Notes: generated by a model from the letters alone, not told the origin. A stretch of DNA of 64,000 nucleotides from Candidatus Poseidoniales archaeon (GCA_038150305.1 JAYOTG010000003.1:2893-66892); one strand, 5' to 3'; positions 14,909 to 60,672 are shown, numbered from the stretch's first letter. Program-made: numbers and translations.

Positions 14909-14994
14909 GCCGAGATCGCATAGCCTGGTAGTGCGCGCGACTGGAAATCGCGTGGGTCCGTCCCTCGGGAGTTCAAATCTCTCTCTCGGCGCCA
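14909..14994 (+). tRNA. tRNA-Ser (anticodon GGA), long variable arm, CCA encoded
   Basis: Hand-folded. Acceptor GCCGAGA/TCTCGGC, D stem GCAT/GTGC, anticodon stem CGCGA/TCGCG with loop CTGGAAA (GGA at 14943-14945). Variable arm TGGGTCCGTCCCTC, T arm GGGAG-TTCAAAT-CTCTC, discriminator G, then CCA. Confidence 0.93.
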
Positions 14995-16797: not shown

Positions 16798-16869
16798 GCC
16801 ACCGTGGCTTAGCGGTATAGCACCTCATTGGTAATGAGGAGGTCGCGAGTTCGATTCTCGCCGGTGGCT
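16798..16869 (+). tRNA. tRNA-Thr (anticodon GGU), no encoded CCA
   Basis: Acceptor GCCACCG/CGGTGGC, anticodon stem CCTCA/TGAGG with loop TTGGTAA (GGT at 16830-16832), T arm GCGAG-TTCGATT-CTCGC, discriminator T. Confidence 0.93.
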
Positions 16870-16976
16870 CCTTCTCCCTGAATCGGCTTCCTTCGAAGAT
16901 TCCATCATCAAGCATTAAGGTGCGATTTTTGGAAATGGCGTTCCGGAGGGGTCACCTCCTCCAGATGGGATGCACG

Positions 16977-26974: not shown

Positions 26975-27949
26975 ATGCGCATCGCCATTACGGACGGCTT
27001 GCACCCTGACGCCATCGCCAAACTTCGTGCCGAATGCGGGGGTGAGGTGGCTGAACTCGAGCCGACATCGCTCGGCTCCGACGGCGGAGGTCCCATCACG
27101 GCGCTCATTGTGCGGAGCCGCACCAAGGTGACCGCGGACGTGCTGGCCTCCTTGCCGGATCTGAAGGTCGTCGGACGTGCGGGTGTTGGGGTGGACAACA
27201 TCGACCTCGAAGCAGCGACGGCCGCGGGCGTTCGCGTCGTCAACGCTCCGCGTGCGTCCACCCACTCCGTGGTGGAGTTGACCATGGCCCACTTGCTCGG
27301 CTCTGTCCGGTTCCTCGGCCCTTCTGACCGTGCCATGCGGGAAGGTCGCTGGATCAAGAAGGACGCAAAGGGTACCGAATTGTCCGGCAAGCGGCTCGGT
27401 TTGGTCGGCTACGGTCGCATCGCCCGCGGCGTGGCTGCCGTGGCCGTGGCCTTGGGGATGGAGGTGCACGCGTTTGACCCCTACCTTCCCGAAGGCCTGG
27501 ACATCGCGCCTGTCACCACCCTTCATGCAGACCTCGACGATTTGTTCCGTTCGTGCACCCACATCAGCCTGCATTGTGGCCTCACGCCGGAAACCCATCA
27601 CATGGTCGATGCGCGTCGGCTGAACCTGATGCCGCAGGTCGGTGCGGACGGCGTGGCGTGCGGGGCCCATTTGGTGAACTGTGCCCGCGGTGGTCTGGTC
27701 GACGAGTCTGCTGCATCCGAGGCGCTGAGCAACGGGACGCTCGCGAGCCTGGCCCTCGATGTGTTCGAAGAAGAACCGGTTGGGGCAGGTCATCCGCTGG
27801 TTGAACACGCGCGCTTCAGCGGCACGCCACACATCGGCGCATCCACGCACGAGGCCCAACGACGCGTCGGGATGGACATCGCAGCGGCCGTGCTTGAGAC
27901 CCTCGACACGGGGTCCTGTCCGACCGTGGTGAACCGTGACGTGCTCTGA
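26975..27949 (+). CDS. serA: D-isomer-specific 2-hydroxyacid dehydrogenase (phosphoglycerate dehydrogenase SerA-like, no ACT domain)
   Basis: MRIAITDGLHPDAIAKL; NAD motif GKRLGLVGYGRIARG; NCARGGLVDE; HIGAST. Confidence 0.8.
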   Translation: MRIAITDGLHPDAIAKLRAECGGEVAELEPTSLGSDGGGPITALIVRSRTKVTADVLASLPDLKVVGRAGVGVDNIDLEAATAAGVRVVNAPRASTHSVVELTMAHLLGSVRFLGPSDRAMREGRWIKKDAKGTELSGKRLGLVGYGRIARGVAAVAVALGMEVHAFDPYLPEGLDIAPVTTLHADLDDLFRSCTHISLHCGLTPETHHMVDARRLNLMPQVGADGVACGAHLVNCARGGLVDESAASEALSNGTLASLALDVFEEEPVGAGHPLVEHARFSGTPHIGASTHEAQRRVGMDIAAAVLETLDTGSCPTVVNRDVL

Positions 27950-28013
27950 TCACTTTGCGTTCATTCACCCCTCCCTCCGTTGCCTCCTCCATGCAGGCTG
28001 GCGTGGCCATGGC

Positions 28014-28271
28014 ATGGGTCGAAGTGTACCGACGTGGCGCATGCGCGTGGATCAAGAATTGCAAGCTTTGGCCCCGTACCGCCGTTTGCTGCCCCATGAT
28101 GAACAGGCTGTGTTTGATGACCTGCTCGCGCATTTGCGGCAGCGCCGTGGTGTGGCCGGCATGCTTCCTGCCCATGACCCTTGGACGCCTTTGCTGCTAA
28201 CGGCCCTGCTCGAGGCATGGGTCCGTCTTCGTTCCTTGGAAGATGCCTTGGAGGGACGGGATGCGGCCTAG
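28014..28271 (+). CDS. Small hypothetical helical protein overlapping the polB start
   Basis: 85 aa from ATG 28014 (MGRSVPTWRMRVDQELQALAPYRRLLPHDEQAVFDDLL...). The stop at 28269-28271 overlaps polB by 11-29 nt, suggesting translational coupling. No recognised motif. Confidence 0.4.
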   Translation: MGRSVPTWRMRVDQELQALAPYRRLLPHDEQAVFDDLLAHLRQRRGVAGMLPAHDPWTPLLLTALLEAWVRLRSLEDALEGRDAA

Positions 28272-30624
28272 TTGGTTGCTCGACGTGCACGACGAAGGCA
28301 CGGGCGTGCTCACGGCATGGGTGCGCCAAGAGCAGGGGTCGGCTCGCGCGCTGCGCTTTGTCACCCCGTGCTTGCTCCACATCACGGCCGCTCCTGAACG
28401 GCTTCGAGCGCTCCAGGTCTGGCTTGATCAGCCCGAAGTTCGGTTGCATCATGGCGTCCTTTCGAGCGACGCCATCGAAGCTCCCGTGGCGCTCGGCGGC
28501 CCCATGCACCCGGTGCTTGAGGTGACGCTTCGCCGCCCACGCGACCGTCTTCGTCTGGCCCGTACCATCGACGACCGTGGTTTTCATCGTCACCACACTT
28601 TGCTGTCGGTTGACGTCGATCCGGTGCAATCGTGGCTGACCTCGCACGGTGTCGAGCTTTTCGGCGGCGTGCAGGTCGTCGAGGATGCCCTCACGCCACG
28701 TCCTTTTTCGGACGTCATGGACGACGTGCGCGTCCTTCGCATGGAGGCCGAATGGGACGGTCCGTTGCACGATGGACGCCTGTTGGCGGTGCGTTTGACG
28801 CCGGTCGAGGCCGTCGGTATGGAGGCCGTTGGGCCAAGCGACGTGCTCCCCCTTGCGGGTCCAGGCGGAATGGAGCGCATGATGGAGGCTTTCGATCGCC
28901 ATGATCCAGACGTTGTGCTGACGGAAGGCGGCGATGCTCACCTGCTGCCTGCGCTGCGTCAGCGGGCCGAGGCATGGGGCGTTCACCTCCGTCTCGGGAG
29001 GTCATCGACGGTCCTGCCGACGCCCACGCGACGCTCCACCGTTCGGTCCTACGGTCGCTTGTTGCGACGAGGTGGGCACCACCGGCTCGAGGGCCGCGTG
29101 CACATCGATCTGGGCACGAGTTTCCTCGGACGTGAGGCAGGGTTGCCCGGGCTGATCGAATTGTCGCAAGCCTCCGGCCGGCCCCTCGATGCGGTGGCTC
29201 GACGCTCCCCGGGCGCGGTCATCAGCGCGATTCAGGTGCGCACGGCCATGCAAGACGGTGTGTTGATTCCGTGGCGGAAGAACCGACCCGAAGACACCAC
29301 GACGGGCTGGGACCTGTTGCATGCCGATCGTGGTGGTCTGCACCTCGATCCAAGACCGGGCATTCACGTGGACGTGTTTGAGCTGGATTTTGCCAGCCTC
29401 TTCCCAAGCCTCATCGCCACACGTAACATCTCCCCTGAAACCCTTGGATGCGCCTGTTGCGCAGGCAGCGGTCAAGCCTCGTTCGTCCCGCTTGACCCCG
29501 ACGAAGCGAAGCGGTGGTTTCGGAACCGTGATGTCAGTCAGCGCCTCGATCCTGCTCCGGATTCATCGCCAGCGGCGTTGAGCGTTCCCGGACTTGAGCT
29601 GCACACCTGCCTTCAGCACCACGGTTTGCTTGGCCGGGTCGTGGCTCCCCTCATCCGCCGTCGTTCTGAACTCAAAGCCCAACGGACAAGGCCTCGAGAC
29701 GATGCAGACCGGCGTCAATTGGCCCTGAAGTGGCTGCTCGTGACCTGTTTCGGATACACCGGTTACCGCAACGCCCGCTTCGGCCGCATCGAGGCGCACG
29801 AAGCGATTTGTGCATGGGCCCGCGAAGTCATGCTGGAAGGCATCGAAGCGGCCCGAGCGGACGGATGGGACGTTGTTCACGGCATCGTCGACAGTTTGTG
29901 GATCACCGACGTGTCAGGGCGTTCCAACGACGAGCGGGCGGTGGCGGCGCAACGTTTGGCGGATCGCCTCGGAGCCACGACCGGTATTCCTCTCGAAGTG
30001 GAAGGGCGATACCCCGTGTTGGCCATCCTTCCTCGCCGCTCCGACGGTGCAGGCGCGTTGACGAAGTATTGGGGCTGCGGCCTCGACGGTGTCAAGGTTC
30101 GCGGCATCGAGGCGAGGCAACACTCGACGAGTCCTTTCGTCAAGCGCTTCCAAAAGGAGACGCTGGAGGCATTGCGCCACCATGTCCTGACCCATGGGGT
30201 GGACGTGGAAGCCCTCGAAGCGCTGCTGCTTGAGGCCCACGACCGTGCCCGGACGTCGTTGATGAGCGGCCGCGTCCCCTTGGTCGATCTGCTCGTTGCC
30301 CAGCGGGTCGAGCGCGGCCTGGAGGAGCGCACCGTCAACACGGTGTTGCAGCGCGCCATGACCCGTTCCTCTCGTTTGGGATGGCCGGTTGCTCTTGGGT
30401 CGAGGCTGCGTTTTGTGGAGGTTGAGGGCAACGAAGACGGCGTCGTGTTGGCGGCCGAGTTGGACGATGGAGCCTCAACACGCTTCCGACCCGCCCTCGA
30501 CGTTCACGTCCGTCGCCTCGACCGCGCGGCATGGTCGCTGCTCGCACCGTTCGGTTGGGACTTGGAGCCGCTCCGGCGACCACTCGGCCAAGGTCGGTTG
30601 CCTGTGGTCCGAAACGTGACGTGA
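28243..30624 (+). CDS. polB: Family B DNA polymerase, divergent (PolB2/Dpo2-like). Exonuclease motifs look degenerate and motif C is atypical.
   Basis: 793 aa. N-terminus SWLLDVHDEGTGVLTAW; motif A FELDFASLFPSLI (D382); motif B LALKWLLVTCFGYTGYRNARFG; motif C VVHGIVDSLWI (VDS rather than DTDS); KxY as LTKYWG. The Exo I position reads VLRMEAEWDG. The Exo II position reads PDVVLTEGGDAHLLPAL, lacking N..FD. An alternative start is at ATG 28261. Confidence 0.85.
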   Translation: MPWRDGMRPSWLLDVHDEGTGVLTAWVRQEQGSARALRFVTPCLLHITAAPERLRALQVWLDQPEVRLHHGVLSSDAIEAPVALGGPMHPVLEVTLRRPRDRLRLARTIDDRGFHRHHTLLSVDVDPVQSWLTSHGVELFGGVQVVEDALTPRPFSDVMDDVRVLRMEAEWDGPLHDGRLLAVRLTPVEAVGMEAVGPSDVLPLAGPGGMERMMEAFDRHDPDVVLTEGGDAHLLPALRQRAEAWGVHLRLGRSSTVLPTPTRRSTVRSYGRLLRRGGHHRLEGRVHIDLGTSFLGREAGLPGLIELSQASGRPLDAVARRSPGAVISAIQVRTAMQDGVLIPWRKNRPEDTTTGWDLLHADRGGLHLDPRPGIHVDVFELDFASLFPSLIATRNISPETLGCACCAGSGQASFVPLDPDEAKRWFRNRDVSQRLDPAPDSSPAALSVPGLELHTCLQHHGLLGRVVAPLIRRRSELKAQRTRPRDDADRRQLALKWLLVTCFGYTGYRNARFGRIEAHEAICAWAREVMLEGIEAARADGWDVVHGIVDSLWITDVSGRSNDERAVAAQRLADRLGATTGIPLEVEGRYPVLAILPRRSDGAGALTKYWGCGLDGVKVRGIEARQHSTSPFVKRFQKETLEALRHHVLTHGVDVEALEALLLEAHDRARTSLMSGRVPLVDLLVAQRVERGLEERTVNTVLQRAMTRSSRLGWPVALGSRLRFVEVEGNEDGVVLAAELDDGASTRFRPALDVHVRRLDRAAWSLLAPFGWDLEPLRRPLGQGRLPVVRNVT

Positions 30625-31248
30625 ACGCAGCGGTTGGAGGAGACGCCACGGCGCTTGCCCGCGTCGAATCCTCAACCTTCCATCGCGTCCTGCGGTCACC
30701 TCCACGAGGCTTCGTGCCATGTGGGCCAGCCGTTGCGTTCGCCATCGGTGGGCCTTGGGCCCATGACGGCCATGGATCACGACGACCGTGGTGGCGTTGG
30801 CGTGTACCGTCTGTTCCAGATCATCGCAGAGGTGGCGCACCATGTCGCGTCGTTCGCGGGCACGGAGTTCGTCGTCGTCGAACATGGCCATGGGGGCGTC
30901 GACCACGACGAGCCGTGAACCGCTGCTCTGAACCTCGTTGGGAAGCCGGGCCACCATGGCCGCACACTGGTGCGCGGTGAACCCGCGCGCCACACGCAAC
31001 GAACGAAGGGCACGCGGTCCGACGCCCAGTTGCGCGAGCCAGGGGGAGAAGCGTCCAGGATCGAGCCGGCATGCTCCATCGATCCAGTGCACCACGTGGC
31101 CGCTGGCCAAGGCGAGGGCCACCCATGCTTCCGCCACAGGGCGCGCCCGCCTTCCATGCCGCCCATCGCCCATCAGCACGTGGACGCCCGGTTGGCGGGG
31201 GCGAAATTCAGCTGCGGCATGCGAGCGAAGCGTGGGTGCTGGATGCAT
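30475..31248 (-). CDS. RecA/RadB-fold-like protein with degenerate P-loop (ImuA/SulA-like architecture)
   Basis: 257 aa. GVHVLMGDGRHGRRA sits where a Walker A would be, but has no GK[ST]. Also HVVHWIDGACRLDPGRFSPWLAQLGV, the Walker-B-like strand SRLVVVDAPMAMF, and TTVVVIHG. High GC3. The last ~50 codons overlap the polB 3' end on the opposite strand. Confidence 0.6.
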   Translation of the reverse strand: MHPAPTLRSHAAAEFRPRQPGVHVLMGDGRHGRRARPVAEAWVALALASGHVVHWIDGACRLDPGRFSPWLAQLGVGPRALRSLRVARGFTAHQCAAMVARLPNEVQSSGSRLVVVDAPMAMFDDDELRARERRDMVRHLCDDLEQTVHANATTVVVIHGRHGPKAHRWRTQRLAHMARSLVEVTAGRDGRLRIRRGQAPWRLLQPLRSRHVSDHRQPTLAEWSPERLQVPTERCEQRPCRAVEATDVNVEGGSEAC

Positions 31249-31295
31249 GGTTTCACCGGACCTCTCCGTTCACCCGAGAGGGTGGTGAAGCCTGT

Positions 31296-31311
31296 CGACG
31301 ACCCGTCGTCG
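31296..31311. promoter_or_regulatory. Inverted repeat CGACGAC-CC-GTCGTCG between the divergent RecA-like and dinB genes
   Basis: Read directly from the sequence. It lies 47 nt upstream of the dinB GTG and 48 nt upstream of the RecA-like ATG, so it is almost centred in the 109-bp spacer. Confidence 0.3.
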
Positions 31312-31357
31312 GAAGTGAAGCGCAGGCCTCAAACACCTTCGACGCGGAAGACGGGGC

Positions 31358-32518
31358 GTGGACGGAGGAGGCAAGATCCTGGTCCATTGTGATTTGGACG
31401 CCTTCTATGCGGCCGTTGAAACGCTTCACCGAGGGCTGGATCCAAACGTTCCGCTGATCATCGGTGCAGATCCGAAATCCGGCCGCGGTCGAGGCATCGT
31501 CAGCACCTGCAATTATGCCGCTCGTGCCTACGGTGTCCGCTCGGCCATGCCGATTAGCGAAGCGTGGAGGCGTTGTCCGGCAGCGCCCGTCGGACCCGCC
31601 ACGTACGTGCGTGGATCACACCGGCTCTACGCACGCGCCTCGCGCCGTGTGATGAGCGTGCTCCGCGCGGTCGGCGGCCCCTTCGAACAAGCGAGCATCG
31701 ACGAAGCCTACCTCGATGTGACCGAAGCCACAGGAGCCGATTGGGACAAGGCCTTGGCCTTGTGCGAGGGCCTGCAACGGGAGATTGTTGAAGCCACGGG
31801 CCTGACGGCTTCCTTTGGCCTCGGCCCCACACGTCTGCTGGCGAAAATGAGCAGCGAGGAGCGGAAACCACAGGGGATCTTCCGCCTCATGCCAGGGGAC
31901 GCTTCTGCGTTCTTCGAAGGCCGATCGTTGAGGGAAATTCCCGGCATCGGTCCCGCAACGGCCACCACCATGCAAGAATGGGGCGTTCAGACGGTGGACG
32001 AGGCATACGGTCTCGGTGAATTGGCACTGGCTCGCATGGTAGGGCCACGCTTTGCTGCCTGGTTGATGGGGGTGGTCGAAGAGCGCACCAGCGACGACGT
32101 GAGCGTCTTGCGCTCTCGAAAGTCCATCGGAAAAGAGACCACGTTCGAGCGCGATCAGCACGACGAGGAGCAGGTCCTCGAGCACCTGCTTACCTTGGTC
32201 GAGCGTGTCGTGGAACGCGCCTCTGAACTGGGCGTCGTTGGGCGTTTGGGCGAGGTCAAATTGCGCTACAAAGGCTTTGAGACGCGTACGCATCGACGCT
32301 CGATACCTGTGGCCATGGACGACCCTTCGGTGTTCAAAAGCCTCGCCACGCGCTTGTTTGCCACCAGCCTCGAGCGTGAACGCCCCGTCCGTTTGGTTGG
32401 CTTCCGCCTCGGGGATTTGGAGGACCCTCCAACGCGCCAGGTGACCCTTGAGCGGTTCAAGGCGTCCTCAAGCGAGACGGTGCATGGACGTGAGGACGGG
32501 TCGGAAGGCCTCGAGTGA
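31358..32518 (+). CDS. dinB: Y-family DNA polymerase IV (DinB/Dpo4-like), catalytic residues intact
   Basis: GTG start. ILVHCDLDAFYAAVE, STCNYAARAYGVRSAMP, SIDEAYLDVT and LLAKMSSEERKPQG. Confidence 0.92.
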   Translation: MDGGGKILVHCDLDAFYAAVETLHRGLDPNVPLIIGADPKSGRGRGIVSTCNYAARAYGVRSAMPISEAWRRCPAAPVGPATYVRGSHRLYARASRRVMSVLRAVGGPFEQASIDEAYLDVTEATGADWDKALALCEGLQREIVEATGLTASFGLGPTRLLAKMSSEERKPQGIFRLMPGDASAFFEGRSLREIPGIGPATATTMQEWGVQTVDEAYGLGELALARMVGPRFAAWLMGVVEERTSDDVSVLRSRKSIGKETTFERDQHDEEQVLEHLLTLVERVVERASELGVVGRLGEVKLRYKGFETRTHRRSIPVAMDDPSVFKSLATRLFATSLERERPVRLVGFRLGDLEDPPTRQVTLERFKASSSETVHGREDGSEGLE

Positions 32519-60347: not shown

Positions 60348-60367
60348 AGTCAGCATGACCCGCCATC

Positions 60368-60672
60368 GGGATAGGTGGGGGGCTCGGCGTACCCTGTACC
60401 GCACATCGTCGTTATGGCGGACCGAATGCCCCGGGGCGGCGAACCCGACCCGTGGTCTCCCGCTTGCGGACGTTGATGTCTCGCCCCCACATGACCCGGG
60501 TGCCATGAACCGTCTCCGGAGGGAGACGGGAATCGGATAACCGGGGGAACAGGTCAGGCCGGGAACGGAGCAGCCCTACCTGGGGCCATGGGTGCTGTGG
60601 GGACCCGGGACGGAGGAAGCGAGCGGACCAGGGCCATGGGGACGAGCGTCCACCCGGGGCGCGCCCACCTCA
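60368..60672 (+). ncRNA. Signal recognition particle RNA (archaeal 7S, about 305 nt). Ends approximate, +/- 5 nt.
   Basis: The helix-8 signature CAGGUCAGGCC-GGAA-CGGAGCAGCC (60550-60575) has a GGAA tetraloop closed by G-C and the conserved symmetric-loop residues. Alu-domain-like 5' end GGUGGGGGGCUCGGCGUACCCUGUACC. The 5' GGUGGG (60374-79) pairs with the 3' CCCACC (60664-69). The short ORFs listed here in the track are spurious. Confidence 0.9.

Follow-up and report, generated by a model that had tools for sequence, protein, structure and literature searches.

A probable PolB2 mutasome operon beside an intact DinB gene in a Candidatus Poseidoniales archaeon

What system is encoded by four adjacent genes, two of them for DNA polymerases, in a 64,000-nucleotide stretch of DNA from a Candidatus Poseidoniales archaeon (GCA_038150305.1, JAYOTG010000003.1:2893-66892; the whole stretch is referred to here as the window)? 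A preliminary description of this DNA regarded all four as one mutasome-like translesion synthesis (TLS) cassette, in which a family-B polymerase without a working exonuclease was joined by an ImuA-like protein and a DinB polymerase, and held that no archaeal module of this kind had been described. On our analysis, the first three genes very probably encode the archaeal PolB2 mutasome (PPB2, PolB2 and iRadA), with DinB an ordinary, intact neighbour, and every sequence-level defining feature of the three mutasome proteins that could be tested is present. The broader idea of a multi-subunit TLS mutasome cassette, consisting of an exonuclease-dead B-family polymerase, an ATPase-dead RecA-superfamily protein and a small helical partner, is borne out. 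The system itself is already known, however, as the PolB2-PPB2-iRadA operon has been published with Poseidoniales loci of this layout and gene order included (PMC4104785, PMC11791011), and the claim of novelty cannot be kept. What appears to be undescribed is a TTCACTT(T/C) element upstream of two of the genes, a 150-bp gene overlap, and an antisense QPTLAEW motif within it, all of which are minor additions. The genes are as follows.

27936-28271, plus strand: small open reading frame (ORF), whose internal ATG at 28014 gives the 85-amino-acid (aa) protein MGRSVPTWR... (from the ORF list)
28014..28271, plus strand: PPB2 (arCOG07300), 85 aa, the three-helix "partner of PolB2", with N-terminal arm MGRSVPTWR
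28243..30624, plus strand: PolB2 (Dpo2-type family-B polymerase), 793 aa; translation possibly starting from the ATG at 28261
30475..31248, minus strand: iRadA, an inactivated RadA/Rad51 ATPase-core protein, 257 aa
31358..32518, plus strand: DinB/Pol IV-type Y-family polymerase, 386 aa, GTG start

The four ORFs and every motif previously quoted for them were recovered from the ORF list and the peptide strings: LDFASLFPSL, KWLLVTCFGYTGY, HGIVDS, TKY, RMEAEW and LTEGGDAHLLPAL in PolB2; GDGRHGRR, WIDGACRLDP and RLVVVDAP in the 257-aa protein; and DLDAFYAAVE and SIDEAYLD in DinB. The end of the PPB2 ORF overlaps the start of polB2, as had been reported, by 29 nt if translation of the latter begins at 28243 and by 11 nt if it begins at 28261; the PolB2 proteins of close relatives begin at the residue equivalent to the latter ATG.

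The assignment of the polymerase draws on several lines of comparison. Pfam DNA_pol_B (PF00136) matches residues 333-731 (E 7.4e-16), and family-B polymerases in the PDB are matched at E 1e-25. Among NCBIfam models the polymerase scores highest on NF004418 (350 bits) and next on NF004416 (310 bits), with PolB1/B3-type models at no more than 88 bits and Pol II at 47 bits, and a haloarchaeal PolB2 fragment taken from the supplement of PMC11791011 scores 812 bits on NF004418 and aligns to the window protein at E 3e-30. These sequence comparisons place the window polymerase nearer PolB2 than any of PolB1, PolB3 and Pol II. Its polymerase motifs had been called recognisable but atypical, and this holds: motif C reads HGIVDS, with IVD in place of DxD and the first Asp substituted, a class of motif C also given for haloarchaeal PolB2 (supplement of PMC11791011), and D382, the Asp of motif A, and D550, the second one of motif C, stay the same in all 14 Poseidoniales PolB2 sequences compared, as do the motif B K...Y.G block, the KxY motif, and a further segment, S269-Y270-G271...G284-R285-x-H287-x-D289. 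The exonuclease, as had been supposed, looks dead. The Exo II stretch YNGDSFDLPYL of the structure 5h12 pairs with TEGGDAHLLPAL, so that N..FD becomes G..HL and the N, F and D residues are all replaced, and a Pfam scan of PolB2 detected no exonuclease domain (PF03104); Exo I and Exo III were judged by sequence alone.

The small ORF can be identified through its N-terminus. The published PPB2, a three-helix protein of about 85-95 aa, carries an "MGRT" arm with conserved Arg3 and Arg9 (PMC11791011), and since an MGR[ST] arm with R9 is found in 71 of 74 loci, and as MGRSVPTWR in the window, we take this ORF to encode PPB2. Its gene lies directly upstream of polB2 in all of the related loci. An AlphaFold (AF2) model contains helices at residues 8-25, 28-48 and 57-84 (mean predicted local distance difference test score, pLDDT, 68); a Foldseek search of the PDB with this small, helical, low-confidence model returned no match below E 3.9 and is uninformative for that reason. 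All of the PPB2 homologues carry a precomputed match to PF26485 (DUF8156).

The 257-aa protein is an inactivated RadA, and is not a member of the ImuA family. Word-indexed search gave 19 homologues, down to 47% identity, and a profile built from 14 of them matched 329 representative clusters at E<=1e-3 in a library of 1.84 billion proteins. A search of the PDB with the single sequence returned noise only; the family profile was needed, and it matched RadA/Rad51, with RadA best at E 8.2e-5. The AF2 model (pLDDT 74) has an ordered core spanning residues 10-206 and a disordered C-terminal tail, and the top Foldseek matches are the ATPase cores of RadA, Rad51 and Dmc1 (E 2e-10, TM-score 0.68-0.70), with RecA lower. 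The Walker A motif reads GDGRHGRR, with neither Lys nor Thr, and the catalytic Glu is lost, IDGA standing where RadA has IDTE. There is no N-terminal helical domain, the core starting at about residue 20 of 257. None of the NCBIfam models, those for ImuA included, matched at E<=1. It is the combination of best profile and fold matches to RadA/Rad51, loss of the Walker A and Glu residues, and the empty NCBIfam result which leads to the assignment. The preliminary description was correct as to a RecA-like fold, and the ImuA-like identity that it proposed does not stand; similarly, its term "lysine-less" applies to the Walker A motif but not to the protein, which has one lysine and 38 arginines. 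A Shine-Dalgarno-like GGTGA lies 4 nt before the iRadA ATG (window 31246-31262, minus strand) and is conserved in the clade to which the window belongs, implying a leadered iRadA transcript.

The distribution of the genes was followed by scanning a single genome for each GTDB species, which gave 573 relatives; the best 80 of these 573 were used for locus comparison, and the loci were annotated with profiles of the three families and with the proteins flanking them in the window. Two Candidatus Poseidoniales contigs from metagenome-assembled genomes (MAGs) match the window at 97-98% identity. PPB2, PolB2 and iRadA are adjacent in every related locus whose contig is long enough to check, about 70 in all, and the cluster is no product of chance. 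All of the Poseidoniales loci have PPB2 and PolB2 on one strand and iRadA on the other, PPB2(+) PolB2(+) iRadA(-), and the loci of Methanomassiliicoccales and other Thermoplasmata are mostly same-strand iRadA-PPB2-PolB2, with one (L081) convergent. Two loci in this set deserve separate comment. A contig labelled as a Verrucomicrobiales bacterium MAG (L049, NZEQ01000045.1) carries a typical Poseidoniales PolB2-iRadA-DinB-aminoacyl-tRNA synthetase (aaRS) locus, and is probably mis-binned. In a Poseidoniales subclade without a DinB neighbour, a 603-aa ORF directly upstream of PPB2 (L041, 3840-5651, plus strand) looks, from its sequence, like a putative photolyase/cryptochrome.

With the three components identified, it is reasonable to postulate how they might act. 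PolB2 would be without proofreading, while keeping the two essential carboxylates, D382 and D550. By homology with the published heteropentamer, it would bind one iRadA and a PPB2 trimer, with the MGR[ST] arm of PPB2 reaching into the cleft next to the DNA, between PolB2 and iRadA, and the complex would then extend mispaired or lesion-opposed primer ends. In that published model, iRadA is bound by a loop of PolB2 resembling the oligomerisation motif of RadA (PMC11791011). In Sulfolobus, PolB2 (Dpo2) is an active extender polymerase that is induced by damage and alone accounts for targeted mutagenesis, and the Sulfolobales complex is induced by DNA damage (PMC8764526). In the window, the two convergent units, PPB2-polB2 and iRadA, are each preceded by TTCACTT(T/C), which would make their co-expression plausible.

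DinB is an intact enzyme. Both Pfam domains are complete (IMS, PF00817, E 6e-38; the little finger IMS_C, PF11799, E 5e-23), Pol IV NCBIfam models score at about 250 bits (250 for the equivalog NF002677, whose cut-off is 256), and the catalytic motifs DLDAFYAAVE and SIDEAYLD had rightly been described as unimpaired. The inclusion of this gene in the module is another matter. Co-occurrence across relatives had been proposed as a check on all four genes, and it holds at every locus that could be checked for the first three but not for DinB, which adjoins iRadA in 38 of 63 testable Poseidoniales loci and is absent from the remaining 25. Where it is present, the flanks are always the same, a 2-hydroxyacid dehydrogenase (HacidDH) and an aaRS, as assessed on the PolB2 tree; within the DinB-linked clade there is a nested subclade whose trio lies in different surroundings and lacks DinB, and a second major Poseidoniales clade, including a contig labelled Thalassarchaeaceae, has the trio elsewhere, again with no DinB. 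In published data, IMS occurs near polB2 in 46 of 95 group-3b loci and in only 4 of 1375 group-1a loci (Supplementary Table S1 of PMC11791011). As DinB is missing wherever the trio sits elsewhere, the trio behaves as the unit and the DinB linkage looks like a matter of lineage synteny. The best reading is that DinB is inherited synteny in one clade, accompanied by unrelated housekeeping flanks, and no core part of the module; judging by its distribution, it has been a neighbour of iRadA since the ancestor of that one Poseidoniales clade. DinB may carry out the insertion that precedes extension by PolB2, although the genomic evidence does not require this. The C-termini of these DinB proteins differ among lineages: most of those from Poseidoniaceae (L009-L067) end in RQTTLFEEE, a short Q..LF ending, and those of the clade of the window have QVTLERF or QTTLMRY followed by a tail of about 20 residues, QVTLERF lying at 32438-32458 in the window.

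How might subunits encoded on opposite strands be expressed together? The sequence upstream of the two units, together with the 109-bp iRadA-dinB spacer (31249-31357), contains these features.

27950..27963, plus strand: conserved upstream element TCACTTTGCGTTCA, the window form of TTCACTT(T/C), about 64 nt before the PPB2 start codon
31312..31319, minus strand: TTCACTTC element, oriented as iRadA is and about 64-70 nt before its start
31296..31311, no strand assigned: palindrome CGACGAC-cc-GTCGTCG at the centre of the spacer, found once in the window (0.08 expected)

Across 59 convergent loci, TTCACTT(T/C), often as TTTCACTTTCA, is found upstream of PPB2 in 45 (2.5 expected), at -56 to -76, and upstream of iRadA, in iRadA orientation, in 46 (3.2 expected); 38 loci have both copies. 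The intergenic sequence around it is otherwise unalignable across loci. In sense-orientation controls the motif was found upstream of none of 38 DinB, 37 HacidDH and 33 aaRS genes, and same-strand Methanomassiliicoccales operons show no obvious copy. The block TCACTTTGCGTTCA upstream of PPB2 is conserved in all five members of the clade of the window, and its pattern occurs once in the window; a search of the window for a regulon hint gave only one further TTCACTTY copy, inside an MMPL ORF and within chance expectation. It is plausible, judging from this distribution, that the element serves as a device for co-expressing subunits on opposite strands. In low-GC relatives the motif core ACTTTC fits ANTTTC, the damage-response element of Orc1-2 in Sulfolobales (PMC6061795). 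The window copies, ACTTTG and ACTTCC, do not fit it, and as such the Orc1-2 connection is only a lead. The spacer features kept across the clade are GAAGTGAA, which is invariant in all five members, a block of about 32 nt upstream of dinB, and the GGTGA before iRadA. The centred inverted repeat to which attention had been drawn is present, but its conservation is limited to the relatives of 97-98% identity, and at 78% it has decayed. We considered this palindrome as a shared operator and rejected it, given a single copy in the window, none upstream of PPB2, and no conservation below 97% identity.

The 3' ends of polB2 and iRadA raise a separate question, that of where the mutasome carries its putative clamp-binding motif. 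The two genes had been described as convergent; they are, and they go beyond abutting in sharing the following stretch.

30475..30624, no strand assigned: convergent 3' overlap of polB2 and iRadA, 150 bp, both ends set by stop codons
30580..30600, minus strand: PIP-like (PCNA-binding type) motif QPTLAEW, iRadA aa 217-223, antisense to PolB2 PLGQGRL, aa 780-786

The overlap ranges from none to 219 bp in related loci. Within it, the QPTLAEW codons pair codon-for-codon with those of PLGQGRL on the opposite strand, and since CAG pairs with CTG, Q-x-x-L in this register reads as Q-x-x-L on the other strand too. Q217, L220 and W223 of iRadA do not vary among 14 homologues, the most distant at 47% identity, and the motif sits in the disordered C-terminal tail of the AF2 model; the tail past it is variable in both sequence and length. 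The PolB2 C-termini of other Poseidoniales are of the QPSLLDF type, and those of the clade of the window read QGRLPVV, with the aromatic residues lost. In the lineage of the window the putative PCNA-binding-type motif is thus on iRadA and not on PolB2, and published work has noted that the clamp-binding motif "shuttles" between these two proteins (PMC11791011); on iRadA it is common in the family but not obligatory. The PolB2 Pro codon that faces the iRadA Trp is CCA in all five loci with DNA available, with nearby Pro codons varying at the third position, an indication that the iRadA frame is under selection there. Over a block of 22 codons there are 8, 5 and 16 variable sites at PolB2 codon positions 1, 2 and 3, respectively, and the predominance of third-position variation suggests that the PolB2 frame dominates elsewhere in the overlap. 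At two loci (L031 and L059, 8412-10664), two predicted membrane-protein genes, of 368 and 262 aa, lie between polB2 and iRadA; the insertion abolishes the usual overlap, and DinB still adjoins iRadA there.

Some of the evidence weighs against the assignment of a PolB2 mutasome and must be set beside the rest. The PolB2 scores on NCBIfam models fall under the curated cut-offs, although the models concerned are lineage-specific; local Pfam hmmscan of PPB2 and four homologues found no family even at E<=10, so that the DUF8156 match was not reproduced; Poseidoniales have D-L in place of the D(K/R) loop motif known from PolB2; and the loci behind the upstream motif are phylogenetically related, such that the counts overstate the independent observations. 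One alternative would retain the gene set but deny its function, PolB2 being a catalytically dead structural or regulatory paralogue that acts in replication control instead of DNA synthesis. The missing first Asp of motif C and the degenerate exonuclease are in keeping with this, and "inactivated PolB" was the original reading of Makarova et al. 2014 (PMC4104785). Nevertheless, the Dpo2 proteins of S. islandicus and S. solfataricus, both robust polymerases, have the same kind of substitution (IID; PMC8764526), and the invariance, in the 14 Poseidoniales sequences, of both retained Asp residues (in motifs A and C) as well as of K...Y.G in motif B and of KxY would argue for retained catalysis, which makes a dead paralogue improbable. 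A further alternative takes the 257-aa protein to be of ImuA/SulA type and the cluster to be an archaeal counterpart of the bacterial ImuA-ImuB-DnaE2 system, with the roles redistributed. The protein does have a RecA-superfamily fold and a dead P-loop and does lie beside error-prone polymerases, and a functional analogy to bacterial mutasomes is reasonable; PMC11791011 draws one for Pol V. As an account of descent it is contradicted on several sides, and we hold it to be extremely unlikely: the protein matches nothing in NCBIfam at E<=1, in profile and in fold it comes nearest to archaeal RadA and eukaryotic Rad51/Dmc1 with RecA lower, across archaea its family stays in synteny with PPB2 and PolB2, the ORF list contains neither an ImuB-like dead Y-family gene nor a DnaE2/C-family polymerase in the cluster, and the DinB that is present is catalytically intact, with DLDAFY and SIDEAY motifs and matches to Pol IV models.

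The place of DinB is less easily settled. All four genes might constitute a single two-polymerase TLS locus, in which DinB inserts and the PolB2 mutasome extends, with iRadA and dinB co-regulated from the 109-bp spacer. The divergent iRadA-dinB pairing is kept from 98% down to about 40% PolB2 identity, the dinB GTG is preceded at 40-47 nt by a conserved TTCACTTC element, the block of about 32 nt upstream of dinB is conserved in the clade of the window, Q..L..[FW] motifs occur on both DinB and iRadA in that clade, and a partner inserter for the PolB2 extender has been postulated (PMC8764526). Yet the TTCACTTC element is antisense to dinB, and TTCACTT(T/C) was never found in dinB sense orientation (0/38). 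DinB does not occur without the HacidDH and aaRS flanks, and is absent at 25 testable loci, the nested subclade among them; since it is tied to its flanks, the adjacency is explicable by a single ancestral event. The scarcity of IMS near polB2 in group-1a operons (4/1375; PMC11791011) tells in the same direction, and in S. islandicus damage does not induce Dpo4, nor does targeted mutagenesis require it (PMC8764526). We consequently regard a two-polymerase locus as rather unlikely. A bolder form of this idea, which we find unlikely, would have the PolB2 mutasome and DinB of Poseidoniaceae forming one damage-responsive two-polymerase locus, in which a DNA damage-response element (DDRE)-like sequence, TTCACTTTCA, drives both convergent units and sits in the iRadA-dinB spacer, and in which the PCNA-binding motif moved from PolB2 to iRadA by antisense overprinting. 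Such overprinting, if true, would provide a concrete mechanism for the published "shuttling" of the clamp motif.

As for the wider setting, an origin of the locus as a mobile element or genomic island was considered and rejected, as its guanine-plus-cytosine (GC) fraction is only slightly raised (0.64-0.65 against about 0.61) and its flanks are conserved housekeeping genes. The window also contains tRNA-Ser(GGA) at 14909-14994, tRNA-Thr(GGT) at 16798-16871 and an archaeal signal recognition particle (SRP) RNA at 60365-60670, consistent with an ordinary chromosomal region.

The PolB2 mutasome in these genomes matters in that UV-exposed, abundant archaea of the surface ocean carry it beside an intact DinB. 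The TTCACTT(T/C) sequence is a candidate shared cis-element and possibly an archaeal damage-response promoter outside Crenarchaeota, and the gene overlap is a neat example of coding on both strands, one motif of clamp-binding type lying on top of another.

The PolB2 operon was reportedly first noted by Makarova and Koonin in 2013. Operons of PolB2, a small helical protein (arCOG07300) and an inactivated RadA paralogue were predicted across archaea by Makarova et al. 2014 (PMC4104785), and Timinskas, Timinskas and Venclovas 2025 renamed the partners PPB2 and iRadA and modelled a PolB2-iRadA-PPB2x3 heteropentamer, their 40 complexes reaching ranking scores of at least 0.8 (PMC11791011). In their dataset Poseidoniales loci are entered under operon group "3b (PPB2-PolB2-iRadA)", and the Pfam families counted near that group (n=95: IMS 46, 2-Hacid_dh_C 45, Lactamase_B 32; tRNA-synt_1 in 48 loci overall) are the window's own neighbours. 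The window and group 3b share the same three proteins with the same defining features, gene order and archaeal order: the MGR[ST] arm with R3 and R9, IVD, a dead exonuclease, a RadA core from which the ATPase residues and the N-terminal domain are missing and, as read from sequence, a putative clamp-binding-type motif on iRadA. Nothing essential differs, the D(K/R) loop being D-L in the window. The main text of PMC11791011 contains no discussion of the convergent orientation, the 3' overlap or the TTCACTT(T/C) element, and the DinB neighbour is only counted in its supplementary table.

A second known system is that of Sulfolobales Dpo2, S. islandicus dpo2 having PPB2 and radA-like neighbours. 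The polymerases are homologous, with the same active-site substitutions and a presumed extender role. The Sulfolobales system is regulated by Orc1-2 through the 5'-ANTTTC-3' DDRE and its genes are co-oriented, whereas the genes here are convergent and no orc1/cdc6 gene lies near the locus. Pol V (UmuD'2C-RecA) and ImuA-ImuB-DnaE2 have a like architecture, in which an error-tolerant polymerase is combined at the sliding clamp with a RecA-superfamily protein and a small or adaptor subunit. The bacterial polymerases are of the Y or C family, however, and that of the window is of the B family; the RecA-like subunit here is RadA-derived and without ATPase, and no ImuB-like dead Y-family protein is present. 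The likeness is one of analogy and not of membership. An analogous comparison may be made with eukaryotic Pol zeta (Rev3-Rev7 with Pol31/Pol32), which acts after Y-family inserters and which the PolB2 complex would resemble as a multi-subunit, B-family extender with an inactive exonuclease; a Y-family polymerase is likewise encoded alongside here, although the accessory subunits are unrelated.

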